A DNA stretch of 64,000 nt from Perkinsus olseni (GCA_013115125.1 JABANN010000115.1:1-64000), one strand, 5' to 3'. Numbered from the stretch's first letter, positions 26,642-54,300 are shown. Numbers and translations: made by a program. Notes: generated by a model not told the origin, from the sequence alone.

Positions 26642-29358
26642 TCAGGCGAGAGGGTTCGAGTCGCTTGTTCCCCTCGGTCTGATGTGTTCTTGGACCTGAA
26701 GGCGCAAAGTGAATCGGAATCGAGAAGCCGGGCGAGGGCTCACGAAGGCAGCCATGGTCCCCAAGGCCCTGCGGGGAGCGTCCCTTTCAGAGGTACAGAA
26801 ACTGAATAGCTGGAAGCAGTGGACCTGAAACATCACAATTTCGTGGCGCAGTGACAGAATGTCCATACTACCATCTCCTCGTATTCTTGGAACTGCAGGT
26901 GAGTATCCGGGCTCTTCATAGCTGACATCTTAGCAGCGAACCTCTCGATTTGAGGAAGGAAAAGTTCATCCTGACCGGCCTGGATCTGAGGTAAAGCGTC
27001 ATCAGAAGGCGTACGTACTCCCCGTGCTGAACCAAAGAGCTTACCAGCATGTTCGGCAGGCCGCTAAGATCGGCATAGTAAGGCGAAACCTCTTGCGAGT
27101 TCGGACAGCAGTTGCCGATAGCATACTGTGCTACACTGGACACCTACCCGTCGACGACACATCACCCAGCAGGAGTGATAGTACCACAAACTCACCAGAT
27201 CACGCTGAACGTAATCAACACACTCCTTCTTCTCCGGCGGCGGCACTGGTTTTGGCGGCGCCGGTGTGGCAGCAGGGGCAGCGGCTTCCGCGGGTTTCTC
27301 ATCGCTACCCTCGGATTTCGACACGCTCTTTTCCTCTTCAGTATTCGCTTTCGAGCTTTCAGACTTCGACGACTTAGGCTGACCTCCATCGGGCTCCTTC
27401 GCAGTTTCACCCGTCGCCTCGCTGTTCACGATGTCATCTCCAAGGCCGCCAGTCTCCTCGTCCTTTTTCGTGTCGGCCGAATCATCCTTAGCCGTGTCCG
27501 CCGCTTCAGAGGGCTTCTCCGTAATACCATCGACGCTAGACGACTTCGTATCGTCGAGGACTGCGGACTCTCCTCCCGCAGAAGAACTAAAGTCGTCGGA
27601 GTCGTCATCGACCTGGTCAGCCAAGTCCGTAATGGGCGACATCAGGCAGGCACTGTTCGGCAGCGGCACCTAAGTATCAAGTTACTGACACCTCTAGCTA
27701 GCATGTGACAGGCACCTACTCCTTCGTCCCTGAGGCCCGCCAGAGCCAAGGTCGCCATGCCAGCACCGAGAGAGTCTCCTGCAATCGACATGCAGCCTGG
27801 GTCCACTCCGATGTCATCGATGAAATGCTTGTATCTGGACACAAGGCGAAGTCATTCTCCCATACTTATACCGAGCCTTCCTCCTACACGGCCTTGACGT
27901 CGCACACCCCTTCCTCCAAAGAGCAAGCTGGCGGTAGCGAGTTGTTCGATATGCAGCACCTGGCAATGTAAGGTGGAAGGCCTTCGGGCTCACTACGGTT
28001 GGCAACGGACTCGTCGTCGCTTACACAATAGCGCCCGCCCTCTTGGCCAGGAGATACAGCATGTAGCGATGAACACCCTTGCCCCACACACAGAAGGGAG
28101 TTCCGGGGACATATCTAGAGGAGAGGAAAAACGTTAGCTAGAGGTGTCAGAAAACACTTCCGCTCACAGTATGATCGGGTTCGTCTTGAGAACGCTGATA
28201 CTGGGTCCGATCTCCTGGACGGCTAGCTCCGGAGGTCTCTTGGGCGTGATGTCGTTGGGCCAAATCCAAGCTGAAGCAAAGACGACGACGAGTCAGCGTC
28301 CTTCCCGACTGTGCGTGATGGCGAAGATACTACTCAGATGGAGAGGCTCCTTGTGGCCCTCGATGTTCAGAGACTGAGCGAAGCGAAACTGAAGATAAGG
28401 TCCATCGGGAAAATAGGTGGAAGAGACGTTCCTATTAGTACCACTCCCTTCGGAAGCATCATATTAGGTAACGGTTTCTCGGCAAGCTTCCTCACACGAT
28501 CCACGCTCATGCCGGAAAGATGCTTCCCCACGGAGCGCAAGGCACTGATGTATCTATTAAAGGCAGGAAAAGAAGTGATGCCTCTGGGATTCGAACCCAC
28601 GACCACGCGTTTACGGGAGGCTGAACGACCCTGCCGATTCTTACGATTCCATATTGGAGTTCCACGACTTTCTCTTGGAGTGACCCATGAACCGACGCAA
28701 CGGGACCTATAAACGACGCCGAAACGCCGTAACCAGGATTCGAACCCGGGAGTTTCTATAGAAGGACAGGAGAGACCCCGACTTCAACTAGTCCACCATG
28801 GTGTTAATACCTTGAGCATCGTGCCTGCAGCTCTCGGGCCGATTGTTGAGGCCCACATCGATTCACCCAATGAGCTGTGAGCTCTCAAAGGCTTGCCTCC
28901 GCCAAGTGTGCAAATGCTCGCATCAGAAGAGCGACCTGACGCACACGGGAAAATTCCACAACATTCTTTCAAAAATAAGCGGAGCGATGCACGGTAATCT
29001 TACCGTAAACGCTAACATCTCCAACTCCGATGTCCACAGTAGCAGAGCTGGCTGAGGACATGGACGTACTCAGCGACGGGGCATTTCCCACAGATTGGTC
29101 CTCAGACTGAGGCAGCTCTGGGGAGCTAGCCGCCGCCTTCATCGTCTCCTGGCTGCCTCTACTAGGCAGCATCTTTTCCGTCTTTACATCAGACCACTTG
29201 GGGCTGCTGCTTTCCTCAGGCGCATGACCAAGCAGATCAGCCATTGAAAGAGTGTTGAGAGGGTCGGCAAGCTCGTCAGTAATAGCCGAGCTGGTAGCCC
29301 TTGAAAGAGCAGGTGTGACCTCCGCGGGGACTGTCACCTTTTCGGGTGCCTCCGTCAT
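26642..29358 (-). CDS. Alpha/beta hydrolase, hormone-sensitive-lipase-like family, with a large acidic insertion (start approximate)
   Basis: IAGDSLGAGMATLAL nucleophile elbow, LMSPITDL, SPYYADLSGLPNML, GQDELF, YEEMVHCFQLF. Confidence 0.85.
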
Positions 29359-29541
29359 TAGAAAAGTATGTGAATAAATAGCTGACAACATGAGGGGTGT
29401 CCAGCAACCCCTCCGGCATCCAGAAGCAACAAGCACGACGACCGAGAGAAACTGTAGTAAGCTTATCAAGGGACGCAGCAGAGATCGTCCCCGGGGTAAG
29501 TATCAAACACGTGGGAGGCCTCTCCTCGCCACTACCATCAG

Positions 29542-32216
29542 TCAATCCATCCGTATCATATAGCTTTGGCTCTGCGTCACATACCGTACCCACCGGTATC
29601 TGATGACGAATATCCGTTATCATGAAGCAATCTCGAGCGGAGCGGAGCGAAGCAAACTCACGGATTGCCCTGAGCCCCCTGAGGTGCTTGTGTCGATCCA
29701 TAGGGCATGCCCTGATACCGATCCGCTATCCGGAGGTATCTAAGGTTGACCCGTGACAGACACGGAATGCCGAATTGGTATTACTTCACTTGAAGGCCGC
29801 TAACCACGTACATGGGGACTTCGAAGGTGAGAGCGAGAGGGCCTATCCTCGGCTTCCCAGTCACGGGCTGAGCGAAATTCAAACGCGCTCGAAGGGTACC
29901 TGAGGTCAGCCTCTGTACAAGCGGCCACCCCTATACCAATCCCCTTCAAATCAAGGTACATCGGCGCTAGTCTGACTAAGCCGGCTCTCGCCGTACACAA
30001 GGGAGCGCAGTTCGAGTCCGGGCCCACCGACAGTGGCAAGTAGACCGCCTGGTATTACACTCATGGCCTCCCTGCAGCTTCTTGATATTCCAATATAGTT
30101 TCCTCTCAGACTCGACAAAGTCAGCGCTCTGCTGCACCGGCGGAGGCTTCTGCATCCCTCTCGGGCCTGCCCCCACGAACGCACCTGAGTACAACGGAGT
30201 GGACGCAACCCAAGCCGACTAAAGACCCCCCTCGAGCAGGCCTACGACTACTCACCTCCAACAGCGGACATGTCACAATTGACGGAGGCCGTGCCAAGCG
30301 GGGTCGGTATCGTCATCTGGATATTCCCGCCATAGTTAGACTCCGGCACCTACTCAGTCGAAATTGCGCACAGCGAAGAATTCTAAGATACCATTACCTC
30401 AGCCCGTATCTTAATCACTAGTTCGACCTTGTACTGCGACACCGAGTCCACGAACGGCGTCACGCGGAAGGGCGGACGGAATTCTGAGATGAACGAAAGT
30501 AGTGCAGGAATCTTAACCGAGGATGAAACCCAGGGTCGCGAGATTGAGGTCGACCCTAGGCAGATCCAGAAGCAAGGATATGCACCGAGGGCAGCTTCGA
30601 CCTTCCTGACCTACCCGAGTCGATGCGGTAGTTCATAACGCTGAACTCTCCATCAGGTGGGACGAAGGAGAGGATCCGCTGGGAGTCGAAATCGTTGAGG
30701 TCCACTCTGGGATGGAACGTGCCTGCAGAAGATGACAGAAGTTTTCTGACACCTCTAGCTGCGAATATTACAATCGTCCAACGGCACGACAGCCTGCTGC
30801 GGCCCCCCGCCGTAGTTCGGCATCGGAGCGGCCTCCCTAGGCTGACTGAGGATCTCCAAATCGTCATTCAGCGCTAGCCGCAGCTCAGGATTGCCTGTGA
30901 GATACCTGCGACCACGAAAGATACCCTCGAAAGGCCCTCAACAACATTACGATTTCATCTGGATCGAGCCATCTATGCTGCTATTGAGCACTTGACCCTG
31001 GGCGTTCATCAAAACCTACGGGAAGTCACATCAAACTCCAAATGGTAGGGCGAGGAAGTGTCTCACCGTCAACCGTTCGAGGATATCAACGAAGATCTCA
31101 TTCTTCTGGTCTCCAGCAGCAGCCTTGCCTGGTATGTGTCCAGCCGCCATACTTGAGACCGCCGAAGTCGCTGTGGAGAGGACCTGCAATGGCGCCTCTC
31201 ATGAACCACAACGCACCCGCAGAGCCCACTGATGACGCCACACTCTGAGCAGCCGCTATGGTAGAGTTGGCTGCAGAGACCGGGACTTGAGGAGGAGCTT
31301 GTGGAACGTGCTGGGCTACCGGGCCGATAGGACGATGAACCTAGACTCGCACTCGTGAGTACGAAGGGTTTTCCCAGAAGGCATCTTACCGCAGTGGATG
31401 GCATCGTCCGGCTAGTATTGAAGGTGGGCAGTGAAGACAATATACCCCCACCTGTCGCCGTGCCGGGGCTATCAGAAACCATAATCGCCTCGTTGTGCAC
31501 GCAGCTTCGGAGGACCTGATTTTGCAGTGAAGGAGTGGTACTACCAAAGAAGGGCGAGGTACCTCAGTATTAGTAGTCTGGGGGATTCCAAAGTCTATCA
31601 TCTCGTCCAAGATCTCGTAAACCAGTACGAAGTTCTTTCGTAGGGATTCCTCGTTGAGGACACCGCAATAGTCCTTGATAACCTGAGCTGGAGAGTGCCC
31701 CTGCCTCGGATTGAACCCGAGACCTCACCTTGATCATGTTGTTGAGTAGTTCTATTGCCCACATAGGGCTCACGTTACATTGGGTGGTGAGGACGAAGTA
31801 TAGGCCCGATCGTTTGACGTAAATGAAAGATATCCCATCTAGATTCTGGCAAGATACAAAATAGGTCAAGACCGAGTCCATGAACGAGCATGATATATCC
31901 CTTAGAGGGGCAGCATCGAGAAAAACGATTCCGTTTATATTACGAAGATCGGCGGTGGCTCTCCGCCATTCCAAAACTTCGCTTTCCGGAAGAAGATCTC
32001 AGCCGTACCTTTGACGATATCGCCGCGGACTGAAGGAGAATATTCAGTACTGACGAAAGCAAAGCGAGCAGACGACAACTCTGTGAACCTATTTTGCATC
32101 TTGCACGACGTAACCTAAGATTCCCCCGCATTACAGTCCCTTGTGATGATGGTATCTCCTCGTGGTGACAGTATATAAAACTGGGAGACCGAGTCGAGGA
32201 CCGTCGCCGGTGTCAT
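29542..32216 (-). CDS. AP4M1: Adaptor protein complex AP-4 mu subunit
   Basis: [125 protein letters not shown]. Confidence 0.93.
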
Positions 32217-32693
32217 CCGTCGGGACTTGGAATCAAAAAAACGCAAAGCGAGGTTCCGCCGGAAAGGCTGCCCGAAGATCCATATCCAATCCAATCCTCC
32301 TAGCCCGCGCCCCCATCCCAGACGCTCGTTAAAAAATCGACTTCGACGACTGAGTCCTGCGCATCAAACTGCTCAGCTGCCGCTGCAAAGTGGCGTATCT
32401 TTGAGAAAATTCCACCTCAAGAAATGAGGTCAACCTTTCTGGATACGTCCATGGACGCCTCAAGATACTCCCCTTCAAAATGATTAAAAGCCTTCGCAAT
32501 CCACCATCACCACATTGATAATGATGTGCTCTTCTTACTAAGCCGGCCTATTTCGTGGCGCGGTGAAGTTGAAAATTCTAGCGGAGCGAAGCGATGCATG
32601 TCTCGCACTTTGGAAGTCGTGACCCTTGGCGTTGTCCGCATGGACAGATTCGTTCCTAAGGCGCAAGTTTCAGCTCCTGTCCGATCTATTAAA

Positions 32694-35600
32694 ATGGCAA
32701 GGCGCTCTAGAAAGGTCAGACGACAGCAAGCTTTCATTAAGGGGGCTCATCAGAAGAAGGCAGAGCCTGAAGAGCAGGCGGAGCCAGAGGAGGTGATGCT
32801 GGCCGTAGCGGAGGGGTGGGAATCGAACGCCATCCCTCAGGTCCCCACTCAGAAGGTTCCTGACGAGGTAGAGGACCAGGGGACTGTCGAGGAGCCTGTA
32901 GGGGCTACTTCACTGCCTGAGGAAGAGGAGGTCGAAGAAAAAGCCGCCGAAGAGGAGGAGGCTGAAGAGGAAGTGGCCGCCGAAGAGGAGGCAGAAGAAG
33001 AAGAGGAAGTCGAGGATGCTGAGCACCATCAGGAGAACCTTCTAGGTAGGCAACGTGAATGGATCACTGGGTTTAGGAGCTTGCTGGGTTGGCCAGGTGA
33101 TGATGACGACGAAGAGGAGGACCTTGATGAAGGCCTGTTGGTCCGTGCCAGTAAGAAGAGGCTCCGTGAGGATGATGATGAGGAAGAGGAAGAGGAGGAA
33201 GCTGGCTTTGGCAGTGATGATGATGAAGAAGAGGATGCGTATGTTGATGAGGAGGAGCTGCCAGACGAAGCTGATGAGGAGGATCTTAAGGAGGCAGCGG
33301 CGGTAAGGAAAGCAAATTGCGTGGAATTCTGCGGGGGCGCCGAGTGTCTATTACCAGTCCTATGACGACATCGGGATTCCGTTGATGATCTCAGATGGAG
33401 GAGTTTGAGGAGGCGGAGGAGGCTGGAGAGGCGGCCGCGACCTCGGCTGCCGTTGTGGATATCCCTTCCCTTAAGAAACGTAGTACGGGAACGTCTTAGT
33501 GCTGGGTCGTGCGGACGGCGTGTGAAAACGTATAGTGCTAGGATAGAACCTGGGTCATTTGATGGTTAATCAGGCCTGGAGGAGGTCATCCGTCTATTGG
33601 CTGCTGGCAAGGAAGCTATTCGGAAGCAAGGGTGCACCAGCAAGGAACTCCGCGAGGAACTGGTAACGACCTGGGCGGAGCGAAGCTGCTTTTTCGATTT
33701 GGCCTCTCCTCAGGCACGCTTGTGCGCCAACTACTACGGTTACAACGAGGAGCTTGCAGCGTACGATCGCCAAGTGTCAGCTTCAACCTAAGATTCCTCT
33801 CCAGGTACATCCTGGATATGTTCGCCCCGGGAGAGGCCGTCCAGCTTTTCGAGGCTAACGATCGGCCGAGACCGATGACCATCCGGGCCAATACTATCAA
33901 GGTGAGGAGAAGGCAACGGCGGAGCGAAGTTTATATCATTATTTTTGTGGTAGACTCGTCGACGCCTTCTTGCACAGCAGCTGATTGCTCGGGGATGCCA
34001 GGTAGAACCCACGGGAGAATGGACCAAGGTAGGGCTTGGGAATTTCTGCAGCTCTCGAGGACTTCGCGTCATTAGGTGGGCCTCACTGTGAAGGAGTCCA
34101 CGGTACCGATCGGCGCCACTCCGGAGTATCTTTCCGGTCGTTATATGCTGCAGGTGAGTGCGCAGCCGGAAGGTTTTTTCGGAATGATATCTTTGGCTTT
34201 TAGTCCGCCTCGTCCTTCGTCCCTGTTCAAGCTCTCAATGCTCAACCAGGCGAGACTGTCCTTGATATGAGTGCAGGTAGAATAGTTGGGAGGGGGTCGG
34301 AATTGAACCCACGACCGTTCGACCACCCCTCAGCTCCTGGAGGCAAGACCACCTACATCGGTCAGATGATGCAGAACCAAGGTGTCCTCTTTGCCAACGA
34401 TCTCAGAGAGGATCGGTAGGTCGATCTTGTCTGCGCCCAGCGTAACCCCAAGATACGCCATTCTCAGGTGCAAGGCCCTCATCGCCAACGTACACCGCCT
34501 GGGGCTCTCTAATGTCGTTGTCACTGCTATGGACGGAAGGAAGTTGAAGGATATGTTACCGAAGTTGGATAGGGTAGGGTTCGAGGGTATTAGGAATTTG
34601 GATACAGTTGGAATGCTGCTACGAACCTCCTGTGAGTTGACGTGCGTTATGGGAACCTGCGCAGGTGCTCTTGGATGCCCCGTGCAGTGGTTCTGGTATC
34701 ATCGCTCGTGACCCGAAGATCAAGGTTAAGAGGAGTAAGACCATCGACAAGACATCCAAAGGTCGTTGGTTCGACCCCCACGGCTTGCTTTTCTACTTTA
34801 GACGTGAAGGAGTTCACTGAGCATGCGGCGCTTCAACGTGAGCTGCTTTTGACGGCGATCGATATGGTTGATGCTGACACCAAAACTACCGGCGAGGGCG
34901 GCGTTATTGTCTATAGTAAGGGGGCACTCGTGGTCTTGCTCCGAAGTGCTTTTTGAAGCAACCGTTGGGCACCTCTTCATGACAGGTACGTGCTCCATGG
35001 CAGTCGAGGAGGACGAGATGGTCATAGACGCGGTAGGAGCCGTCTCCTCCTCCTGCTGCCGTACGCCGTTGTTGGCAGATTTTGAAGGCCCGCAACGTCC
35101 GTGTGGTTCCCTTCGATGACGTCGTCAGCTTCGGCTCTGAGGGCTTTACCTCCTTCCGCGGCAAGCAGTTCCATCCCAGCCTCAAACATTCTAGAAGATT
35201 CTTCCCTCATGTAATATAGGATATCGAATAGTCGTACCTTGTAGCTCTTATTACTAGCGAAAGTAGGAAAACGATCTCGCTGGCTGCTCAATGGCTGAAT
35301 TATCTACTCTATAGCGCTGCCCAGTGAATGAGGGAATTGCCACCGCTTCTATCGTCTATAGGCGTGACGGCCGGCGATGTCTTTTGTGCTAGGAGACGTG
35401 TCGATTATAGCATGCACAGCGTGATGTATAAGAAGACCTTCTATCGTATCGTCGAGGTCCTCTCATTTCCTCCGACAGGTGCATAACATGGATGGCTTCT
35501 TCGTTTGCAAACTGCAGAAGTTCAGCAATGAGATCCCTCAGCGTAAGGCTCCAGCGGAGCATCTTGTTTTACTTACGAGTTTCTTGTAGGTGTCCGGAAG

Positions 35601-36144
35601 GACCGTCGACCGACCGAGGCCGTCACACATGCTTGGGGAGAGGATAAATGGTAAAAGCGAATCTTCGCTGTGCGCAATCGGTCAAGAAAGATATGCTTCC
35701 AGGAAAACTGAGTTCATGGATACCGTGATGACCGACTTCCCGCAAGAGGAGGGCAAACTTCCCCCGCCGGAGGAGAAGAAAGTGCAGCCTAAGATTTCGA
35801 AGAAAAAGCGGAAGTTGGAAAAGCAGCAACAACAGTAGTAGAATTGATGGGGGGATTTTTTGAAGTATTTGAACGATTTTCAGGGCCGAGAAAGCTGAGG
35901 AGAAAGTAGAGCCCAGCAAGGAGAAGGTGAGTTTACATGACGGTTATCGATCGTCATGGCGCGCGCTTCGTACTCGGAGGGTGTATGTTTGTAGGTTGAG
36001 AAACCCACGAGTGGGAAGCCAGCTACTCAGAAGGGGAAGTCGTTCAAAAAACGGAAATTCCAGGTGAGGGCCGCCCAGTTCCGAGACCTGTGCGGACGGT
36101 TGGTCTCTCAGAAGAAGGTCGGCAAGGCCAAGGCATCGGCGTGA
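32694..36144 (+). CDS. NOP2: Nucleolar rRNA cytosine-C5 methyltransferase NOP2/NSUN1
   Basis: Acidic N-terminus; YYGYNEELA, EANDRPRPMTIRANTIK, PIGATPEYLSGRYMLQ, APGGKTTYI, VLLDAPCSGSG, YSTCS, RRFFPHVHNMDGFFVCKL; Lys-rich tail. Confidence 0.96.
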
Positions 36145-36345
36145 TTGATGCAGGCCTCTCACCTTCGGTACCTTCTTACCAAACGTTGTCCATTACAAAC
36201 GTAAATCATCTATTACTACCACGTAATTGTTTCTAGTTGCTCGCTGAGAGCCCAAGCGTAGCGTTACAGTGCTTAACGGCATTGGATGCGGGAAGACGAT
36301 CTCGCTTCTCAGTTCGGTGTCCTCTTGCCGATCTCCGTATCAATT

Positions 36346-37100
36346 ATGGCCAGCATGAGCGAAGACAGGTATTTCCCAGCGATTCACTAGAGTGCTGCGG
36401 AGCCGTCCGATCAGGTACTCAGGGAAGTCGGGTGTGTTCGACTCCCTTGACTCTGGCGCTGAAGGGGCCACCTCCATGGACACTGACTCGGAGTCTTCGG
36501 CTGCCGCTCAGCCCGGTGCCCCCGCTAGATGTAATATACGGCACGCCGGTAGGTCCAGGGATTTGATGCTCGTTGTCAGCTATCGAGGGATGGGTCATCT
36601 TCCTTACCGGCCTCCATGAGGAGACTCAAGAGGATGATGTGTTCGAGGTAGGTCGAGGGGCTGGAAATCTCTCGGTAGGGCTGCTTTTAGGTTGCACAAG
36701 AGTACGGAGATGTCCGCAACTTGCACTTGAATCTGGACCGACGAACAGGTGAGTTTCGATAGGGACATGCTGCTCAGTAGCTACTGAGCAGCATGTCCCT
36801 ATCGAAACTACTGAGTCAGTAGTGCTTTTCTTGTCAGGCTTCGTGAAGGGGTACTGCCTCATCGAGTACGAGAGCAAGACTGAAGCCTCCAGTGCTATTT
36901 CGGGTAGGGGAGGGAGGCATGGAAATGAGATTATGGTGGGATTTGTCTTAGGATTGAGTGGCAAGATGATCTTGGAGACACCGGTGACTGCTGACTGGGC
37001 CTTCGTCCGCCCTCCTCCGATGGGTAAGCGAAGGTCGCGGGTTCGAATCTCCCCTGGGTTATTTTATCTTCCAGGCTCAATGAGGAGTAGACGTCTGTAA
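36346..37100 (+). CDS. RBM8A: Exon junction complex RRM protein Y14/RBM8A
   Basis: [57 protein letters not shown]. Confidence 0.95.
36752..36809. repeat. Perfect 58-bp palindrome (29+29, no spacer) in a Y14 intron
   Basis: AGTTTCGATAGGGACATGCTGCTCAGTAG followed directly by CTACTGAGCAGCATGTCCCTATCGAAACT. Confidence 0.97.
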
Positions 37101-37241
37101 GGAAGAAAAGCAGAGGAATTACGAAGCATTGATATGAGACAGTAGAATGGAGAAACGATAGGACATTAGTATCTGACATCACACCCGGGAGTGTTGGGTT
37201 GCGATACCTATTCGACGGCAAAAGCAGGCCCTTTCCTCACT

Positions 37242-39212: not shown

Positions 39213-42200
39213 TCAATTCAGCAGGCACAGGTTCGATCCGCACAGCCTACGTTTTAGTGTATCGAGTATCTTTTCGGCCAGCCTGTCTTCCCCAGTGTGA
39301 ATAACAACCTCATCGTTCTCAGTATCGACGCTCGAGATGCTCTTATCTCCGCGCTTCAACGCTCTCAAGTTGAGCTTTAACTCCTTCAGCTGACCTTTCT
39401 CCGACTCAGAGGGGTTCAGCACCAACTGCTTGTACTGCTTGTGACCTGTATTGTGATCGACCACCTCAACGACCATATCCTTGGCAACGTCTCCAGTGGG
39501 GAGGGCGATGCTCGTCTGAAAGGAAGAAGGCTCAGAGGCGTATCTAAGCTCGACCCTAGGGACCGATAAACGCCACCGGACTCACATTGTTAAGCGGGGC
39601 CGGGTCTCCCCATACATGAGCTGCTTCCTCCACTTCCACCTCGCCCTCGCAGATAAGGGACACTCTGATATTATAGCCATTCTCCGTGGAGGCAGCAGGT
39701 GTTGCTGGGTCGCGGCACTGCTGTCGCACAGTGTAACGAGCTGCCAATCCCCGAGGAGGGAGAGTGAATCCCGTACACTCGTAGGTGACTAATTGCGGAC
39801 CGGTCCTTTGAAGGTAGGTAGTGTCGGGCAGCTCGACCTGATCACCGCCGCAATTCCGCTCATAGAGCGGCAGATCATTGACTTTTTCCGCTGCGAAGAT
39901 CGGATATTCTCGTCCGCCACTCCGTGGACAGAGTCGGAGACTAGCGCTACGTACGAAATTATTATTTCCACGTCCGAGGTCTCCAAACTCCGGGCAGGCG
40001 TTTATCTCAGAGCAAGATGCGATGCAAGATGCCTCAACGCCTACTGTTATAGAGCCCTTATGGATCTCCTTAACTTCAACGATACCAGCGCCCAGAACAG
40101 AGGCCTGGGAGCACCTCTCTTCTTCAGCCTGAAGACACGCCATTCGAATCGACAACCCTCAACTCGTGTAGCCTACGTGCGGTCCGGAATTGATTGCCTT
40201 GGATGGGGCTTTGGGAGTAGGGGCTGGCCATCCCCGATATACCATTTGGGAGTCGTCGTGAGGTTTCACGTCAATTTCGCGGCGCGGTGACGCAGCATCT
40301 TGCCCAGACTCCTCCCAGACTCCTCCCAGACTCTTGCCCTGAGTGTTATACGTGTACCGCGGGCCAGCCGTGATACCCTCCCTCACCTGCGCGACATCAG
40401 GCGGAGACGACGGCCTCGGATGGGACACCGGAGCGTCCCACTCGGCAGCTAGGAAGGCCGCGGCGTTATTCGAAGAGCATTGGATTTTAATATTCGCGTC
40501 ATCGCAGGTGACAGGCAGAGCTCCAGCGTCCGTAGGGTGAGAAGTGGCGGAGTGGCAGCGGAGGGCGGGGCTGCTCGGTTCCGCGAACTGAGGCCATCGG
40601 TGAAAGCCGAGATTATTAGCTTGAAGATCGTCACCTCAATTTCACGCTTGTCGTTGTTGAGCTCTCCGATCTCCTCGGTGCGATCACCGAAGTCAACGGT
40701 GGTGCACTCCGCTGTTATCCTGGCATCCTGAAAGACGTCGGCAAAGCGATGAGCGGGTAAGCACGGGGAGACAGATTTCCTTACCGAGTATGTGTTCCAC
40801 TTCCGGGCCACAGTATTAGCTGCTTCCTTGTTGAAGCATTTGAGGCTGACCCAAGTGTCGAACGCCCCCTCCGAGCCGGGCTTCCGGCAGAGGGCCGAAA
40901 CCTCAGGGTAGCGAGCGTCGGGCTCGTGTCGGGACTCGGCTCCGGCGCACTCGATCTTGTCGAAGGATTGGCCTTCGCCTTGCTCTCGAGGTATCTGAAG
41001 GCACATTAGAGTCGGGAGTGAGTGGTCGAGGAGAATCTCACCATGAAGCCACCATCCGAAATGGAGGAAATCTTGGAGTACGGATGGCCCTCGAATGAGA
41101 CAGCAGGGCAGTGGTCAACGAGTTCATCCTGTCAACATCGCGTTCCAGTTTTGTCAGTAGGAGGGTAGCTCACAAGGGGCATGTGTGGCTGCTTCTCAGC
41201 CGTGTCCTCCTCTCCACCATTTACATCAGCAGGTTCGTCCGACTCCTCCTCAACGGCTCCCTGATAAGCGTCGTCGGCCGGTGCCCCATCGCCGCTGGTG
41301 GATTCAACCTGAGTACGAAGTCTCAGTGGGGAGGACAAAAGAAGCAAAGCCTGATCGCCTCACGTCTCCTTCCTCCGATTCGCCGGCATCGGCATCCACC
41401 TGCGAACATTACAAGTCCGTTACTGTGATGACGTTACGATATGAATGGGTATCCATGCGAGCAGCGGAGGTGCAACCCACCTCAGCCGAAGAGTCCTCGT
41501 CAGTATTAGCCTCATCCGAGGGTTCCTCAGTATCGTCTATATCATCGTCCGAGAGGGCGTCGTGCTCTTCATTTGGAGCTCTGTCGTCGTCTTCGAGGTC
41601 GTCGCCAGCCGCATCATTTTCTTGCCCAGACGTGTCATCCTCTTCCTCACTGCTGATATCATCGGACGTATCATCGATTGCCTCTGCAGCCTGCAGGTCG
41701 TTGGTATCGGCAGTATCGCTGTACGGGGGTGTTTGTGCCTCCTCAGAGATGTCGGGCATCTCTGGGTTCACGGCTTCCTCGGCGACAACTGGCTCGGCAT
41801 CAGCCGTGAGGCCCTCAGAGCCCTCAGAGACTCCATCATAGCTCGTCGTATGTGGTGGTTCTTCGCCGGAGCTTTCGGCCTGCGAGAAGCAGAAGTGAAC
41901 GCGTGCTCTCAAGAGCAGCGTAAGGCACATTTGTCTCGTAAATGCGGCCTGCGAGGATCGAACTCGCGACCTTAGGATTATGAGACCTACGCGCTACCTA
42001 CTGCGCCAAAGCCGCTTGAAAAAGTAGGTCATTGTTTGTCGGACTCAAACCCCACAGTATGCATGACTTACCGAGCCGAGATCGACTACAGGTGTCTCGA
42101 ACTCTTGCTCTGGGATCTGATAAGCATACAACTACTCGAATTCAACAATCCCGATCAGCGACCTCTACCGAGTTCAGCTGAGCATCAGCGGCTTGAAGAC

Positions 42201-43219: not shown

Positions 43220-45649
43220 TTAGTAACTCTCACACATTAAGTGTCTTACGTTTCTTATGCGAGAGCTAAGCAGACGAAAGCCTTCCTGCGCCGCGTCATC
43301 AGTGGGGTAATAGATCACCACACTCCTCCCAGTAATGTCCCTGCCGACGATCGAGGCCCCGGCATGCTGAAGCAGCTCTACATGAATGGTATCCGCCAGG
43401 ATCTTCACCTGACAGCGCGAGAGAGCTTGCAACCCCGAGCGTCCCCGCTAGTACTCCCAGTGGAAAGTTCAAGCGGCAGTAGGCATCAGGCGACCCCCGG
43501 CTAACGTCGAGGGAGGAGAGAGTTGCTGTGGCAGCTCACCTCAGTGGATTGACGTCGTTCGTCCATCGAGGGACTTGTGTAGACGAACTTCGGCGCCCCG
43601 TCGATCTGCCCGGGGAGCATTGGCGGAAGGACAGGAGCTAAAAAGCAGCCATATCCCAATACGGTAGATGCTGAGCTCCCTTACCGTGCGGCGAGCCCCC
43701 GGATGACCAGCCGTGGGAGGAGAAGGCGAAGGCCGAGTGCTGCACGTGATGGGCGCCGCCGCTGCGCTCCAACTCTGCGTTGTGGGCAGCCTTCACGGGT
43801 CTTATACCACGCAAAGTTCGACCCGTTGGGATTGGAGTGGTAGGCTCCGAGTTCTGAATGCTTTCCTCTCGAGTTGTGCTTGCATCCTCATCATCATCTT
43901 CCTCGTCAGCGCTGGAAACACCGCCCTCACGGCCTTCGGGCTCATCACTATCATCCGCCTTCTCATCACTCCTCCCGTCCGATCCCTCGCCCCGACCAGA
44001 GCGAGAAGCGTTTGTGTCTCCATCATTTGGCGGCTCTGTGGACACCTGCGGTGGCGGAGTCTCCACAGCTGCATCACCATTCATCGTCTCCTGAAGGCAG
44101 CTTCCTTTAGACACGGATGAGTGTTCAGCTCACCCTAGGAAGATCATCATTAGCGTCTCCTGCCGGGAAGAAGTCGCTCGAAAAATCAGGGATATCAGGG
44201 AGGTCGGGTTGCCACTCGGCTGAGGAAAAACAGATTCATGCAGCAAGTCCATGGCGATACTACCTCCTGAATCAGCGGTACCAACCGGTCGATCTCTTGG
44301 CAAGGGCCAAGTCCCGCCCGCTCGAGCCTTGCTGGCGAACTCGGGTTTCCCTGGGTCCGCCCTTTCATGGCCAGTCGGCAGCGGGTCGAACATCTCTCCA
44401 TCGTCATCGAAGTCCGGAATACTCACCTCGGTGTCACGGTGAGCGAGGTCGGAATCGCTGGTCTCGTAGAGACTCTCAGGTGATGGTGGGCTTCCATCGC
44501 CCAGAGAAGGGCTTTCTTCTGTTCTGTGCTCATCATCCACAGCCTCAGCCTCATCCTCGTCCTCGTCCTCACTCTCCCGTGTCATGTGATCGACACTCTC
44601 CAAGCCTTCATCACTCTCATTCTGATCATCGGTGACATCTCCCAGGAGTTCAGGAGTTCCCTCATCAGCGACCCCGTCTCTCTCCCTAGCAGGGAGCTCC
44701 CCGTCACTCTCCTCTACCGAGGGGAACTCTGCCTCATCAACATCCCCATCCATGCCCTCTGAGGTGTCCGTTTCGTCCTCACCGCTCCCTCCAGCCTCGT
44801 CCTCGTCCACCGCGGCCTCCCCAGGGACCTCCTCAGCATCGACATCATCCTCAGACCCATCACTCCTCTCTGTAGCAAGCTCCGTAGCATCGTTCTCTTT
44901 TTTGAGCTCCTCCGACTCGTCAACATCAACATCATCCTCGTCAGGAGAAAACGTGCCATCTTCGGCATTCTCTTCTTCCGAAGCCCCATCAGCAGCCCGA
45001 GGCTCGCCTTCATCTTCTGACTCAGGCTCCCGTCCTTCAACTTCCTCCTCGTTCGTACCGTCCTCCTCGGTGATAGCCTCGGATCGTTCTGCCTCCGTGT
45101 CTGTGCTCTCGTTTGTACTGCCTGCTTCGACCGTCTCATTATCCTCCGGAAAAGGTGAGGGCGATACGTCCATACTAGGTGCCTACAACCACAGAAAACG
45201 GCCCTCATCAGTCTAAGATGTACTTTGACGGGCGTACCAGGCCAGCTGGAAGGGCCTCAGCATCATCCTCGACTACTGAGCTTTCCCCGAGCATCTCTGT
45301 GGCGGCCTCATCCGTGCTTGCCAGCTCCGCGGCGACGTCCACTGAGTCCACTGAGTCCTTGTCGATAGTTTGCTCAGCTTCATCCTGAGGGTCGGACGGC
45401 TCGAGAACCTAACAGGGAAGACGGCTATGGTAGGTCGAGGTTACCCTCGGGACGGGTACATCAGGATCCCCATCGGACCCCTCCGGGGCTCCCCATGCTG
45501 CTGTAGAGAGCTTCCCATCAATCTGGTTCTGAGAGGAATCACCCGAATGACGTCCCACTGCCCGGTGGCAAAGCCAGCCTTACTGCGAGGTGGGGCTCCC
45601 TCGATGTTGTTAGCGGCAGAGCAACAACCAGGAGAAAATAGATCAACAT
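43220..45649 (-). CDS. Secreted, highly acidic low-complexity protein (multi-exon; 3' end approximate)
   Basis: Signal peptide MLIYFLLVVALPLTTS at 45649; long D/E-rich exons (ORFs 44130-45173 and 43638-44114). Confidence 0.6.
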
Positions 45650-45665
45650 GAGCCCTCCAAACAAA

Positions 45666-48600
45666 CTAAGGCAAACTGGTGAAGAGAGCCTTGGCACTGC
45701 GACCACTGGGAGCGGCGCCGCCGCCGGCGGCAACCTTATTGGTGAACTCAAGAGAATGAAGCAAGGACATCCATGAAGGCTTGACAACATCTAACATCAT
45801 GATAAGTACAAAGACACCAACACAACGAAGAGAGCAGCTCTCTTCACCAGACGGCAGTGTACGGCTCCCCAGGGGGTAGAGGAGGGTCGGGTCACTTCCT
45901 TCTAGTAACCTTGGTAGCCCTCCAGCCTGAACAGCAGCAGCAGTCCCCACGATGGCTGCCTGCCGCAGGGAGGCCGGTCCTACCCCGACGGGATTGCTGG
46001 TCGGCGGTCTGCCGTTGCCCTACTGGACTCCTTGCCTTGGACAGACTCCTTACACCGAGAGCCTGTGCGAATCGAGTGATATCAGTGGTGACCTGAAGGG
46101 AACGCGAAGTCTTATCCGGCAAGGGCGATCGGACCCCACCTCCTGGACGCGGCCCGAGAACTGCCGCATGAGCAGCTCTGCCATGCCGGGCTCCTCGAAA
46201 ATTATGTTCACCTTCTTGCCATCTAGAGTCTCGCCCCAGATGTTCTTCTCGCCGGACCTGCACAGAGGAAAGCTAAGAGTTCAGCAAGGTGGTCTGACCG
46301 AGGATCCCTACCGTAGGCTGTCGTAAAGGATGTGCATCTCATGCCAGTTAGCGCGCTCCTTCGGAGTAGGGTCAACCGCCCCTACGCGGCTCACCACCTC
46401 CGACCCAAGCCGCGTTACCCGGACATTGAGGTGATGCGGTAACACAGCCGAGGGACCTAAGAGCAGCGTTGGTGACCACGAGGGGCGGGCGTAGTTTCTG
46501 ACCTTCAGCTGGAGCATTGGCGAGTGGCAGAACCTAAGACGGGGACCAAGTACAAGCGCGCCGAAGCGTTGAGAGCTCACTGGTTTGGGCGTGTATCCTC
46601 CCCAGATCACAGAGAGCATCTGGGCATCCCGGAAGGTGTTGCAGATGATGTTGCCCTTGATAACATCGGGTGAATCTGGGGAAATGTGGTACGACGAAAC
46701 GCTAGAGATTAGCAGAACTCACTAAAGCCCTCATGGCAGCCAACACGGACCCTCCACTTGCCGTCTCCCCCTCTACTCGATACAGGACTCGAGCTCACCG
46801 CGTCGCAGGTCAAGCGGCGCAGAAGGCTTGCCTGGTCCTGGGCGGCGCGTATCTGTTGACAGTGTTTGTGCCTGGATCAACCTCGTCACAGTCCTACTGT
46901 GAGCATCCTCCCAGCGGTCTTGAGGTCGAGGAGGTCATCGGCGATGCCGGGAGTAGCTTCCCGTTGGAGCTGAGCACAGCTTCCGAACGGCACCTGCATA
47001 CCATCGTACTAACCGAGCGCTCGGGTGGGATGTCCTACCAGAGGCTCGCCGGGTGGAGGGGTCATCACTTGAGGAGCGCTGCCGCTGCTGCTGGAGGACT
47101 GAGACCGAGAGGGCTGAGAGGTGACCACACCTTCTGAGAACTCACCGAAGATCCCCAGCCGAAGTGAGCGAAATTGAACCAGCCTCCGCTGGTGCTGCTC
47201 GACACAGGAGCTGGCGTGGTAGCCGGCGGGGCGGTAGTGGTCGTGGTCGTTGGCGCGGTCGTAGCCTCCTGAAAGCGACAGGATGGTCGAAAAGTGCTGG
47301 CCCCAACGCGGGCCTTACTGATGATGAAGAGGCCCCCCAACTGAAGTGGAAGAGCCCAGCCTGGTGGGTGTACTGCCTGCCTTGGGCCGGGGGTGGGGCG
47401 GATGTGGTGGGCGGCATCGGCGGCATCTTAGCCTACACCAAACACATCACCAAGTGGGCCCTGGCGGCACGATCCTACTGGTCTGTATCCGCCCCAGAGG
47501 ATCGACAGGAACTCTGCGTCCCAGTAGGTACCGCAGACGATACGGTAGGTCACGCCAACGTCCCAACCTGACAGCATTGTGAGCAACACTCGACCGAATC
47601 GGTAACCAGCCTTCCCACCTTGGGCGTCGTGGCACTTGGTCCGGATCTGCCACTTGCCGCTCCCCTCCCACTCAGTCGGCTGCCCCTGTACTCCGTCACA
47701 GGACAATGAAACGGCATCCGGGAAGCCGAAAGGGGTGAGCTGAGCGAGCGATGAAGGAATGCCTCGGAATCTTTCCTGTAGCGTTACCTTCATTATCCGG
47801 CCGGGGTCCATCGCCAAGTCCATGATCTCATCCAACTCAGCAGCCACTGCGAACTCCGGCTGAGCTGCTGTACAGCTGGGGTACCGAGTCTAAGCGAGAG
47901 CACACTTGATCGGTCGCCAGAGGAGATGGAAAGCAGCTCACATGCGGACGAGGAGGCGGAGGAGCGGTGCCCGTCGGCAGTGGCTTCGGCGGCGCCAACT
48001 TTTCGCTGGCTGAAGCCTGGGTTGAGCCAGAAGTCTGAATTTGAGATGCATGTCACGGCTCCGGAGTTACCGCACTTACCATCCACCCGAACTGCGGGAA
48101 CCCGCTCCACCAGCCAGCACTCTGTGTGGGGGCCTGTGTGGTTGTGGTTGTCGTCGTCGTAGTGGTGGTGGTGGTTGAACTGGTCGTAGGTGGTAGTTCC
48201 TGAGGCAAACCCAGTCAGTAGAACGCAGTATGAGTACCAATATCGACCGAGGCCGCCACGCCGACTGGAGCGTGCTGCAACGGGCCCTCTCTCTGTGGGC
48301 GAAGCGACCCACCACTGGAGACTTACCGGCTGATAACCTCCCCAGAGTATTGCAAACATCTCCGCCTCCCAATAGGATCCGCAGATCACGTTGCCGTCAC
48401 CAGAACTCTCGGGATCTGAACCAGACAAGAAATCACCAGGGCGGCCGCCATCATCAGCCCGTCCTCACGGTCATAGTCTTCGCAGTTCACCGGGACATAC
48501 CACTGCCCCTGCCACGCCGTGGGGTTCAGCTTCACTCTGTCGCAGAACAGCGAGTGCGCCCTGCGCAGCCCAGCCGGTAGAACCTGGAGCACGGATGAAG

Positions 48601-51270
48601 GCCGCGATGCGTAGCACCTCCCATACCTTGAGCTCTCGACCTGACGCCAGAGCATCGACCAGAGTATCGTAGGATGGTGCCATCGAGAACATTCCGCCAG
48701 ACTGCATCCTCGTACAGCTGCCGAAACGACCCTGAGAAGCGAGGCGATTCCCCGAGGTTTCCAGTCAAAGCGCCCTCGCCTTGGTCGTAGTAGTCCTCGT
48801 AGTTGTGGTAGTGGTGGGCGTGGTAGTACTAGTCGTAGGTCGAGGAGCCTGTGAAGAGGAAATAATCACGACAAGGGGATGGTGTCAATTTACCACCGCC
48901 TGGGAGTGAGCTCCGAATCCTGAGTAGTAGTAATACCAAGACCGTTGGTGGGCCCTCGCAGCAGTTGTCGATTTTGTGGTCGTTGTAGTGGTAGTGGTGG
49001 TCGAAGTGATCGTTGTCGGCTAACACCATCAAGTGAACTCACCGCCAAGCCTAGGGGACCTACGGGTCTGTATCCGCCCCAGTGTATGGCAAGGAGCTGG
49101 GCATCATAGTAAGCCGCACAGTAGATCCTCCCCTGGCTGACGAAGCCTTGCCCTAACAAAGCACACCTTGAAACCACCAAAAGAACCGCAGAAATGCCAC
49201 TCACCTTCAGAGTCACCGCACTTCACCGGAACAGACCACTGCTCCCCTCCCCCTCCTCCTCCGCCAACAGCATAGTCCTTCCTCGGCAGCTCCATGACTT
49301 GCTCACAGGTGAGGGACAGGATACCCTCCGCGTAGAAGGGCCGCACCTGCGCCGGCGGCTCCCCCACAAGCATGGTCTCTTTGAGCCCACCTGGAGCCGC
49401 CGCCCATAAGGCAGGATATCGAGGACCTCATCCACTTGCCCGCCGTCGGACCAGTCAGGCCGCATGGTCTCGCAAGTAGGGTACCAAGTCTGAAGACGGC
49501 GCTGCGTGAGCCACAAGCGCGGCGCAACTCACTCTGGGCTTCCTAGTAGTAGTCGTGGTAGTGGTGGTCGTTGTAGTGCTAGTGGTAGTAGGGCGGGGCT
49601 GAGAAACAGCAAGTCCTTAGATGACGTGTCATGGGGCTCACCGTGGGAGGGTGGTTCCAAGTGTAACTTCCAGCAGCATGTACCATCCACCAGGCCGACT
49701 GCTGCCTGTGAACCCTCGGGGCCTGGGTTGTGGTGGTTGTAGTGGTAGGAGGAGGCTCTGTGGGTGGGGCGCTCTGAAGCGGCAACAATCTCGTGAGACC
49801 GAACCCATAGAGTAAAATCGCGGACGGAGAAGCGGTGACCGCTAGGCTATTCTCAGTAGCAATTTTTTTCGATAGAAAAGCAGCCGACGACGGTACTAGG
49901 GTCGGTTGTCAACCCCTCCAGGCACCACTCGACAGCCCCGATACGAGCGCGTTAATCCCATCACAAAAAACCTTTGAACTTGTAATGGCCCCTGCTGTCG
50001 TGACGCGTACCAAACTCCACCAAACTCACCGCCTCATAGCCTCCCCACATAACCGCCAGGAGCTGAGCATCCCAATAGGAGCCACAAACTATCCCCTCCT
50101 CCTCAACATGAGCATACACCCTCGAGGATGCAGCCATGTAGCAGCTTGCAGAGACGCGGTAACGGCCATCTCCCTCCTTGGCAGGAGGGGCTCGGACTGG
50201 GTCGCAGGCCATGGTCCGAGCCTGACCTCCCTTCTCTCCCCAGGGCGACACCTGCAGGCACAAGTCCGCCGTCGAGAACTGGGCCGAGAGTTTCACTCAC
50301 GGATAGGCCGCGGTTGTCGAAGAGGAAGTTGGCGATGTGCTGAGGCATGTGGTTCGGGCCGGACAGGGGAATCATCTCCTGGCAGCTTCCAAGGAACGAC
50401 TGACGAGAGCAACGATCGCCGAAGCGCTGCATATCACTTCGCACCCTCTGAGTGGTGGTAGTGGTCGTCGGGGTGGTGGTCGTGGTAGTAGTCGTCGTAG
50501 TGGTCGTGACGACCTGAGGCAGGTATCTTACAGAAGGCTGCGCGGCAAGGGTAACCTACTGTTGTGAACCCTGACCAGGCGAAGTGCTTGAACTGGTACC
50601 ACCACGAGCGCGTCGTCGGGGCCGGCGTTGTGGTAGTGGTTGTTGGCGTGGTCGTTGTAGTCGTGGAGGCCCTTACCTCCTCCTTATGGTACATCACAAC
50701 ATGCTGGAACCATCCCGAGGAGTGCGAGGACCTCGCCCCGCTGGGAACTGGGCCGGCCCCCACCCCGCCCTGAGGGACCGATAGAGGAGGAGAAACCAGT
50801 AACACAGGCTTACTTGGAAGCCGCCCCAGGCCCTCGCCAAGACCTCAGCATCACCGCGATTGCCGCATACCACAACTCCCCCACCCGATCGGCCGTGACC
50901 TAGCAGAATTCCATACCGCAAATCTCCCAAATCTCCTTCAGACCCACCATCATAATCCCGACAGTCCACACGGACCAGCCAGGTAGCTCCCTTGCCCTCC
51001 GGAGGCACCTCTACTGGCTGGCACCTCAACTGCAGTGGATGTATCATCTGTGGTGGGAGGACCTGCTTCAGGAAACTCAGTCCCACACAATACTAAGCCT
51101 CGGTTCTACTGTGAGTTCCCGCTTTCGATCGTCGAAGTCGATGATATCATCTGCCTGTCCCTTCGAAAAGTCCGCTATGAGTTTGTTGCAGGACTGAAGA
51201 AGGACTACAGGTGGGAGCCCACCAACACTCACTAAGAGCAATGAGAGAGCAACTTGCTGCTGTCCCTTAG
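45666..51270 (-). CDS. Large multi-exon protein with six Cys/WGG domains separated by Thr-rich mucin-like linkers (ends approximate)
   Basis: Six repeats ending C(G/A/N)x(Y/F/R)x(D/E)Axx(L/F)xxxWGG(Y/F) at about 46600, 47490, 48335, 49075, 50040 and 50820, with poly-Thr tracts between them. Confidence 0.7.
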
Positions 51271-51339
51271 CGAGTTTCGATCAGCATATTGAAATATACA
51301 ACGACGCCATTTACGGGTGAACCGCCCACGCTCTCCTCT

Positions 51340-54300
51340 CACCTCCGCTGCCGGTAGACCGGCCGACGGCTGCGATTTCGCCCCCTGAGAGACAGAGAGG
51401 GTGAGCTAAATAAGATCGTCTCCATCCTTACGGTGGCGTGGTGGCCCCAGGAGCCTCCAGCGTAGGTGTACCACGACCCGCTGCTGCTGGCTTCCACCCC
51501 ATCCGGTAACCGCATGCCGTTACCAACCATACCAGGGAGTGAATATGGGCCAGGGACCCAAGAGGGATCCTGGACAAAAAGCAGGCTCCGAGGATCGAAC
51601 CCGGGACCTCGCTAGCTCACATCGAAGCCGCCCCACAGCTTGGCGAGTGTCCTAGCCTCGTACTCCGAGTCGCACCGAATCTTCCCCTCCACTGTCTCGA
51701 CGCCACCGATGCCAATGATGTTGCACTTCACCGGAATGAGCCAGTCGTTTAGGTCAGCCCGGTGCTTCGGTCGCGTGACCACCTCCTCGCAAGCTGCTAC
51801 TTCGGGCTCTCCTTTGTACTGGCGTCGAACCTGCCCTGCCAGAGTCAGGCCCACCCGATGAGGAAGACTGACCTTAAACCTCCTCCCCGAGGTATCAAAG
51901 GCGGTGATCTTGCCGTATTTATAGCTGTGGCGCGGGCGAAACTCCCGACAGGTACCAAAGCCAGCCTGAGCACCATCCAATGCTCGACCGCCGCGCCGAA
52001 TGGCAGCAGTCTATTACTTCATCAGTGGGCACGAACGAACCGCCACTCCCCTCAGAAGGAGATGGGCCGAACGCTTCCTCAGACTAACATTCGACCGTTA
52101 GGCATGGTTATCGCACTGCGGCAATTCTTACCTCTGTACTATGCTCTTCTTCTGACGAGTCGAGCAGGCCCTCTTCCTCACCCTCCTCGACCGCAGCGGT
52201 GTCGGCCTCTTGCTCATCACTACTGTGTGCTTCATCATCGAAGGAGGTCTGACCGATGGGAGCCGTGACGAAGGACCCCGACTGCGGCAGGGGCTGCTTA
52301 TGACTTTCCACCCACCTTGTAGCGGTCGACCCTATTATCCTCCGAAAAATGCCTCACCTCGGGCTCCCCGTGACCAGAGCTCTCCTACAGGACCACCATC
52401 GCTGGAAAGGCGATCGCTCGAAAGACTCACCTCATCTCCCGGAGAGAACCCCTCCCCGATTCCCGATGAGAGTCTCGCGAGATGGTGAACCTGAGGTCTT
52501 CCATACTACGGCTACAGAGCCCACGCTACGAATTCCTCGACGAATCATCGTTGGCATATAGCTGCCATGCCGGCCCCAAGAGAACCCTCACGTCCTGGCC
52601 GGTGGTTACCTCATCTGCGTCCTCAAAACTCGGCAGGTCCTCTGGGACACCGTCCTCCTCCTCATCCTCTTGATCGCCGCTATCGCTGTTATAGCCTCGC
52701 AGCGAGGAAGCCTCAGGCTCGGTAGCAGCTACCTCGGGCGCCTGATTGAGAAGAAACATGAGAGCCCCCTCGAGACCTCCGCAGGACGACCAGACGCTCA
52801 TTGCGCCAGCAACTGGCAACAATCACAACGGACCGCAATGACCGGGGAATGGCTGGCGACCCATCGGCAATTGACGAAAAAAGGCGATCGAAGTTGGAGC
52901 CGACATCAAAGCTCCACCAGGCAGGACAACCTCGGCAGCGGCAGCACGAACCAGTCTACCTCGTCGTCGTAACGCGGACTCTCTCCTAAAGAATCTTCCA
53001 GCTCATCTTCGTCACTATCCAGGGCTCGTTCGCCATGGCCATCCTCCTCGGAATTGACCAGCCCGTCAGCGGCAGGGAAGGTCGGTGGCAGCGGCGCCTG
53101 ATGAGCCGTATAGTCGACAACCATGACTGTCGCCTTCCCCAAGGTGGCTCACCTCAGGATACTTCTCCGAAGTGCTTCGCTGAGCCGAAGCCGATGAGGG
53201 CTGGTCGATAGAGTCACCCTCATCACCCTTTGGCGGAGGAGTGTCCTCGAAGCCCTCAACGCTCGGTCCCTGGCAGAACGGGCTATAATTGAGCGCACGT
53301 TTCCTCCAGTGAGCCCGCATGGCAAGTAAGTGGATCGATACGATAACGAGACGCTCCGGGAGGGGTACTCACACTGCGACCTACTGTACCTCTTCCGAAG
53401 AATCCTCAACAGTATTGGACTCATCCTTCGGCTCCTCTGTACCCTCCTCCTCGTCGTCGTCGTCGCCACCTTCAGTTTCCTCCTCATCCCCCTCCGAGTA
53501 GCCCTCAGTCGCACCGCCTTCACGGTTATCCTCAGAAGTCTGGTTCTTCGAGCCCTCCCCAGCGGCATCCTCATCACCAACCGTATCGTCCTCATCGCCG
53601 CTGCTACTCTCATCAGGAGTATCGTCGGTCGCCTTAATGCTCGTTGGTTCACCCTGCCCATCGGCAGCAGGCTTACTCTCTGAGTCCTCGCCAGTCCCTT
53701 CCTCCTTCCCTGCACCACTAACATCATCCTCGCTCCCCTCGGGCGTCACCACATCTTCGCTATCGCCCGACTCGGTGCTCCCCTCGTCTGGGGTATCGTC
53801 GATCGCCTCAACACCCGCTGGCTCATCCTGCTCATTGTCAGCCATGCTAGTCCCTTCTTTCTCCCTCTCACTTTCGCTGCCATTCTCGTTCCCCTCAGGT
53901 GTCACCTCGCCTTTAGACTCGGTACTCCCCTCGTCGAGCAGCCCACCCGACTCCAGGACTTTCGTTTCGGGAGCTTCATCCGCCACCGCCTCGGACCCGG
54001 AAGTGGAAGCTTCACCGCTGCTGCCATCCGCCGAAGGACCCAGAGCGCTGGTAGCACTGCTATCCTCAGTATTACCCGTCTCCGACTCCAGCCTCGGCGG
54101 AGCGATGCTGCCCCCTGCTGAGCTATCATTACTCGCTCGATAGCTCGACTCGAGTGCAGCACCAGTCCTTCCCTTCTTCAAGGCCTTCACGCTTCCCACT
54201 GCGAAAGGCGCTCCCCAACTCTCAGCGAAGTAAACTGCATCGCCCTGCGCATCAAAGTGCAGGACGAACAGAAACTTTTTCTTCGGCTCCTCTGGCCTCG

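Follow-up and report, generated by a model that had tools for sequence, protein, structure and literature searches.

T-arm-like, apparently tRNA-derived patches in short spliceosomal introns of Perkinsus olseni

The window and the seven host introns

Perkinsus olseni is a parasite of molluscs. Within a 64,000-nucleotide stretch of its DNA (GCA_013115125.1, JABANN010000115.1:1-64000; hereafter the window), a short element that resembles the variable loop and T arm of a tRNA, and with them the B box of RNA polymerase III (Pol III) genes, recurs inside seven introns of unrelated genes. The source of the window can be read from a 414-residue open frame at 2011-3255, which shares 99% identity with a P. 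olseni dipeptidase, compared to 91% with that of P. chesapeaki and 72% with that of P. marinus. Short GT..AG introns interrupt the genes of the window in great number (PMC3101222 deals with how common introns are in P. marinus), and among the joints listed for RNA contigs from three runs (15 of 60) the skipped segments measure 43-108 nucleotides (nt). Our own rough two-strand gene finder gave 189 introns, from which hand curation yielded 173 short introns with a median of 51 nt and a total of 10,763 nt; as the gene finder fuses neighbouring genes, and was exact for only five of eight NOP2 introns on which it had not been trained, these census figures are approximate. The seven introns that carry the element are spliceosomal, 46-104 nt long, and are the following:

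28554..28644, minus strand: hydrolase intron, 91 nt; T-arm element at 28586-28604 (-), sense
28707..28810, minus strand: hydrolase intron, 104 nt; T-arm element at 28733-28753 (-), sense
31683..31728, minus strand: AP-4 mu intron, 46 nt; T-arm element at 31706-31725 (-), sense
34277..34333, plus strand: NOP2 intron, 57 nt, in frame without a stop; T-arm element at 34299-34316 (-), antisense
34735..34801, plus strand: NOP2 intron, 67 nt; T-arm element at 34761-34782 (+), sense
37024..37074, plus strand: last intron of the RRM (Y14-like) gene, 51 nt; T-arm element at 37033-37052 (+), sense
51570..51620, minus strand: intron after WGGFD in the first repeat of the repeat-domain gene, 51 nt; T-arm element at 51588-51609 (-), sense

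All seven elements were found where the first-pass annotation had placed them, and its assignment of the sites to introns holds on an RNA joint for 37024-37074, transcript-length arithmetic for the two NOP2 introns and homology for the rest, five of the seven being without a joint among the 15 of 60 listed. The joint from 37022 to 37074 (GT..AG, skipping 51 nt) occurs in RNA runs X7, X8 and X12 and is absent from DNA run X2. A NOP2 transcript contig has 33301 at its position 533 and 35078 at its position 1497, so that 813 nt have been removed, and thirteen GT..AG introns, including 34277-34333 and 34735-34801, total exactly 813 nt and leave a spliced frame open for 433 codons. Residues 326-348 and 348-374 of the Nop2 chain 8esq_q flank the first of these, the 19 residues gained by reading through it having no counterpart, and positions 82-105 and 109-139 of the Pfam profile PF01189 fall in the exons flanking the second. 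A similar picture emerges for AP-4 mu, where the upstream exon aligns to residue 86 of chain 9u9i_M and the downstream exon from residue 90, which, extended to the exon ends, places 31683-31728 at 88|89. For the hydrolase, the peptide ...TMLK|VPLRR is uninterrupted across 28707-28810 in the P. marinus and P. chesapeaki orthologues, as is ...NSNMES|YISALRS across 28554-28644 in the orthologues P0123 and P0124, and the sequence of the two species runs unbroken over both introns (...TMLKVPLRR...NSNMESYISALRS...). The P. chesapeaki protein P0123 is an alpha/beta-hydrolase orthologue and carries PF07859, but its source calls it “AP-4 complex subunit mu-1”; the name was probably transferred from the adjoining AP-4 mu gene. 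Finally, 51570-51620 has open frames on both sides and six paralogous introns.

Enrichment and tRNA likeness of the elements

The window contains eight matches to the 18-nt pattern GGTCNNGGGTTCRANYCC at up to two mismatches and six at up to one, compared to means of 0.67 (maximum 3) and 0.017 (maximum 1), respectively, in 60 dinucleotide shuffles. Seven of the eight are the intron sites, and the eighth belongs to a genuine tRNA gene:

41943..42015, minus strand: tRNA-Met(CAT) gene, found with Rfam (RF00005, 67.6 bits) and ARAGORN

Inside the 173 introns the seven matches compare to a mean of 0.095 (maximum 1) in 200 intron shuffles, which is the intronic enrichment over shuffled background that the earlier annotation called for. 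The T-arm feature is genuine and not a product of chance. For the bare B box GGTTCRANYCC at up to one mismatch the enrichment is only weak (26 matches compared to 15.8, with 3 of 100 shuffles reaching 26), and GTTCGAATC alone is not enriched (17 compared to 15.4). In a leave-one-out analysis with a position weight matrix (PWM), every member ranks within the top 8 of 128,000 positions, at 15.6-26.6 bits, and the best non-member reaches 12.3. A covariance model built from the eight members (the seven intron copies and tRNA-Met; model R1) scores them at 30.9-42.2 bits in the window, with the next match at 11.9. At E ≤10 this model finds 21 matches, 13 of them non-members at E 0.9-8.7; one of the thirteen is the palindromic partner of the 28586 site, and the other twelve form no halo of decayed copies, four of them touching predicted introns, about as the 17% intron share predicts. 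The gap between members and non-members in both scores therefore indicates a discrete class, without a trail of half-decayed copies. Six of the seven strong copies are sense to the host gene, a count that the earlier annotation had right, though the bias is not significant (two-sided binomial, 0.125). The grouping of the seven sites within 28.5-51.7 kb is not meaningful, since 100 of the 173 introns fall there.

The stretch common to the copies corresponds to tRNA positions ~44-65, that is, the variable loop (A/G-GGTC) and the T arm, and over this whole span the consensus of the seven copies agrees with that of the Rfam tRNA family. The T stem is followed by 7-8 unconserved nt in the place of the 3′ acceptor strand. 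For instance, the element at 28586-28604 is followed by 7 nt, a discriminator-like A and a T run, that at 34761-34782 by 7 nt and a T run, and that at 37033-37052 by 8 nt and a T run; the element at 31706-31725 starts 3 nt past the donor GT, and its T loop is one base short. None of the seven has a CCA after the element, and TTTT occurs in the last 30 nt of four of the seven motif introns compared to 31 of the 166 other introns. With its T run and missing CCA, the 3′ end therefore looks like that of a tRNA gene or its primary transcript and unlike that of a mature tRNA. The T stems vary among copies yet 85% of their cells pair, with double-sided changes in 7 cells compared to 3.2 in shuffles (1 of 500 reaching 7), which argues for several tRNA species as sources. 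Unpaired cells number 6 of 40 over the eight sequences including tRNA-Met, and the invariant T-loop letters are intact, in part because the search selected for them. The 51588 copy is identical to the tRNA-Met of the window at 27 of 33 nt, from position 43 into the trailer (repeat-family D14), and its T stem differs by a double-sided change. With a tRNA-like variable loop and T arm and a gene-type 3′ end, the elements are what fragments of tRNA genes should look like and, judged by sequence, are tRNA-derived patches.

The rest of a tRNA is missing from the sites, as had been noted at first pass. The Rfam tRNA model (RF00005) has no match, even a partial one, to the seven intron sites (27-53 kb), whether at its gathering threshold or at E ≤10, nor to the 37033 site in a separate 101-nt search, and a full cloverleaf above the RF00005 threshold, as expected of a functional tRNA, is found at 41943-42015 only. 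A-box-like sites are barely above chance (106 compared to 86.6 in shuffles), with none 30-60 nt upstream of the listed B boxes. ARAGORN at lowered thresholds makes calls at the rate seen in shuffled sequence, shuffled windows giving 0-1 calls at 95% thresholds. One ARAGORN candidate, a “tRNA-Glu” at 28724-28803 that includes the 28736 site, was rejected: its fold is poor, its acceptor stem mismatched, and Rfam has no match there at E ≤10.

The tRNA-Met gene has a DNA word depth of 2016 compared to ~97 in neighbouring bins (about twenty-fold), and DNA contigs diverge exactly at its ends, 41943 and 42015; the raised depth and the branching at both ends therefore imply dozens of dispersed copies. 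It carries one A/G variant, at 41985. Two weaker T-arm-like sites complete the inventory:

42039..42057, minus strand: weak T-arm-like relic, 24 nt upstream of the tRNA-Met gene, followed by a T5 run
32793..32840, plus strand: NOP2 intron, 48 nt, RNA-verified, with a degraded antisense T-arm-like stretch at 32819-32836 (-)

The first had been reported as a weak site, and weak and T-arm-like it is, but the real tRNA-Met gene 24 nt downstream had gone unreported; it is not among the 21 R1 matches at E ≤10, and may be what is left of a tandem tRNA gene. The second has 3 mismatches and 12.2 bits with the PWM, near background, and is a weak member whose T loop, 3′ stem and acceptor-like part resemble the 34299 copy by eye only. 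Like it, degraded stretches at 10967, 30009 and 33524 are antisense to their host introns and score at background.

Origin of the fragments

The relative age of intron and fragment can be judged in the repeat-domain gene (46500-51700, minus strand), which encodes seven diverged internal repeats with Thr/Pro/His-rich linkers and has no Pfam match in the two exons tested. Each repeat ends ...C..Y[WY][DE]A..L....WGG[YF], followed by a phase-0 intron, whose donor lies 1-4 codons past WGG[YF] in all seven repeats. The T arm is present in one of the seven introns, that of the first repeat (51570-51620), and the other six are unrelated in sequence. Since the intron position is common to all seven repeats and the T arm to one, the fragment entered an existing intron, and as this intron still has the median length of 51 nt, the fragment must have replaced most of the interior and was not simply added. 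The link to intron birth suggested in the first-pass annotation thus fails in the sole testable case, the dating covering 51570-51620 alone among the seven.

Other short modules are also shared between introns. A 20-nt module occurs in three introns of neighbouring genes (27680-27699, minus strand; 28136-28155, plus; 30741-30760, minus), two copies being identical and one inverted relative to its host. Contigs of DNA run X2 diverge at 30743 and at 30760/30761, the edges of the module, and as contigs diverge in this way both here and at tRNA-Met, both sequences are multicopy in the genome. An exact 17-nt module is found in two introns of unrelated genes, sense in both (30363-30379, minus strand; 35662-35678, plus); we take it to resemble an acceptor-plus-D-arm piece of a tRNA, and an Rfam search of this D-arm-like module gives no tRNA match. 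An all-against-all BLAST of the introns returns 21 pairs, four of them below 1e-3, compared to 1-6 pairs, none below 1e-3, in five shuffles. The RNA-verified 89-nt intron at 36749-36837 (plus strand) contains a perfect 29-bp palindrome (36752-36780 / 36781-36809), which resembles a hairpin or foldback-like insert.

We lean, tentatively, towards the reading that 3′ fragments of tRNA genes were captured into ordinary, pre-existing spliceosomal introns, each fragment covering roughly tRNA positions 44-76 (variable loop, T arm and 3′ acceptor strand) together with a trailer that includes the Pol III T run. Perkinsus genomes would supply hundreds of tRNA gene copies; near-identical tRNA genes of P. 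marinus are reported to number 349 for tRNA-Leu, 116 for tRNA-Gly, 46 and 9 for tRNA-Ile and 23 for tRNA-Tyr (PMC3706591). Short pieces of such genes, or of untrimmed pre-tRNA, may be copied into breaks in transcribed genes as filler or templated patches. Patches in exons would be lost, and those in introns would survive where splicing is kept; sense orientation may be favoured because the T run can double as a pyrimidine tract before the 3′ splice site, and the B box and T loop would be passengers, not devices. The strong antisense copy at 34299 argues for insertion at the DNA level, at which either orientation is plausible, and the other patch-like modules, found in unrelated introns in either orientation, count for capture as well. 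Like known tRNA pseudogene fragments, 5′-truncated tRNA retrocopies and break filler, the patches are partial, derive from several tRNA species, occur in either orientation and require no function; unlike these, they are confined to introns, replace most of a normal-length intron, and show no CCA, poly(A) or target duplications. An earlier suggestion of tRNA or short interspersed nuclear element (SINE) fragments stands in its first part and not in its second: tRNA-derived SINEs do have a tRNA-like B box and are often intronic, but the patches have no A box and no tRNA-unrelated body or tail, are 20-35 nt long with similarity over 12-33 nt, and come from several tRNA sources.

Several points weigh against this capture. 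All seven copies are intronic and none lies in predicted intergenic DNA, which, with short introns making up ~31% of predicted non-coding DNA, has a probability of roughly 2.5e-4 on our own rough gene model; a neutral model would therefore need transcription-linked capture or faster loss elsewhere. Neutral relics should show intermediates, and the scores are bimodal (30.9-42.2 compared to 11.9 with R1, and 15.6 compared to 12.3 with the PWM). In three cases the host intron is of ordinary length (46, 51 and 51 nt, with the median at 51), so that there the fragment must have replaced intron sequence and was not simply added. The T loop keeps its invariant letters, whereas pairing fails in 6 of 40 stem cells, a contrast that is partly an effect of the search. 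Additionally, the window offers a single tRNA gene as a possible source to compare the copies with, and when metagenome contigs were scanned for hydrolase orthologues of Perkinsus, and with them the orthologous introns, 272 pattern stretches matched but no relative appeared.

A more sweeping process is conceivable, though we think it unlikely, in which intron interiors are continually overwritten by 17-35 nt patches from multicopy small-RNA genes or their transcripts, with position and length class kept. The T arm would then be, with as little likelihood, the most recognisable among several patches, at least two other exact modules being present. Were it true, transcription-linked template-copying repair would remodel intron interiors and scatter B boxes by the thousand through gene bodies.

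Lone B boxes bound by TFIIIC, the extra TFIIIC (ETC) or chromosome-organising clamp (COC) sites, occur in yeasts and animals. It is possible, at a low probability, that the copies are likewise putative lone B boxes, derived from tRNA genes and under selection as TFIIIC sites in gene bodies; if so, and we would not wager much on it, these candidate sites would act on chromatin or on the passage of RNA polymerase II (Pol II). The B box is exact in four of the seven copies (28587, 28736, 34299 and 34768) and one mismatch off in the other three (31707, 37040 and 51591), the copies form a discrete score class with no decayed intermediates, and like ETC/COC sites they have the B-box consensus without an A box or transcribed tRNA and are probably tRNA-gene relics. 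The T-loop letters that persist beside the unpaired stem cells would fit such selection, but intact loop letters are what the search selected. Unlike ETC/COC sites, the putative Perkinsus sites all lie in short spliceosomal introns and retain the GGTC of the variable loop as well as a T run like that of a trailer; the conserved GGTC lies upstream of and outside the B box, and a DNA site need not shun intergenic DNA. They are also far denser, 7 in 64 kb amounting to thousands genome-wide, many more than the ETC sites known elsewhere.

Distinctly less promising is the possibility of introner-like mobile elements with a tRNA-derived core, whose insertion would bring a ready 3′ intron half (T run and AG). 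The tRNA-like part does fill about two thirds of the 46-51 nt introns, short modules recur among introns more often than chance would give, the 31683-31728 intron has, by eye, a 7-nt direct repeat on its flanks, and the related parasite Amoebophrya has introner elements, which together with those of Micromonas and Aureococcus present the same picture of a repeated sequence in many short introns, in Amoebophrya those of an alveolate parasite (PMC7789003). Set against these introners, the patches show likeness over the patch only and no terminal repeats by eye, and one host intron is older than its patch. The best intron-intron matches span 12-20 nt (33 nt to tRNA-Met) and not whole introns, the T stems come from different tRNAs, there are no inverted ends or consistent target duplications by eye, and the position of the 51570-51620 intron is not new, as it predates the T arm.

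An element acting at the RNA level, a T-arm mimic bound or modified by tRNA enzymes (e.g. pseudouridine-55 synthase) or by factors that process tRNA ends, is improbable, and an effect of it on splicing or intron decay equally so. The form of the T arm, a 5-bp stem with a 7-nt loop, the covariation of the stem pairs and the six sense copies of seven are what it would predict, but the sense bias is not significant (0.125), stems are mismatched in four of the seven copies, about 4% of introns carry a T arm, and the degraded stretches are mostly antisense, though at background scores. The T hairpin is missing from most minimum-energy folds of the motif introns, whose fold z-scores are ordinary (-1.9 to +0.3, compared to a mean of 0.09 and a standard deviation of 1.26 over all introns), so that the T-loop splicing element proposed at first pass finds no support from folding. 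Chance resemblance or a compositional artefact, for which the weak enrichment of the bare 11-nt B box at one mismatch could be cited, is refuted by the shuffles (6 compared to 0.017 at up to one mismatch; 7 compared to 0.095 in introns) and by the leave-one-out ranking (top 8 of 128,000), and its probability is negligible.

Wider context and further observations

As tRNA-derived patches in existing introns, the elements would belong to known kinds, tRNA relics and lone B boxes, with any function putative. In the literature on Perkinsus introns and tRNA, introners, SINEs and tRNA-derived intron gain, supplements lying outside the scope, we found no T arms in Perkinsus introns. The genus does provide an example of mobile DNA that targets tRNA genes, since the Dada DNA transposons of P. 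marinus, 4.7-11 kb long, insert at the A box of intact tRNA genes (PMC3706591). These transposons show that tRNA genes there are hugely amplified and a hub of mobile-DNA activity; nothing of the Dada kind adjoins the motif introns.

The worth of the observation depends on the genome-wide and cross-species pattern. If the pattern is genome-wide, tRNA-gene fragments would be present in ~4% of the introns of this intron-rich alveolate parasite, giving a traceable record of interior turnover in minimal (~50 nt) introns and bearing on how new intron sequence may arise from break repair templated by abundant small-RNA genes. Pol II genes would also contain potential TFIIIC sites in their thousands, a matter of interest for where lone B boxes come from and what they do. 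Even as neutral debris, the fragments would be of use in dating the changes that introns undergo among Perkinsus species.

Two further features of the window may be mentioned. A 35-nt inverted repeat (54561-54595 / 54695-54729, 80% complementary, arms 99 nt apart) carries in its arms the only perfect A-box-like TGGCATAGTGGT of the window, and no tRNA is called there. At 32672 and 36311 (plus strand), RNA contigs of run X8 begin with the same 9 loose letters (CTTGGCTCA), which are missing from the DNA; we take these to be the 3′ end of the Perkinsus spliced leader, so that NOP2 and the RRM gene would have their trans-splice acceptor sites at these two positions.

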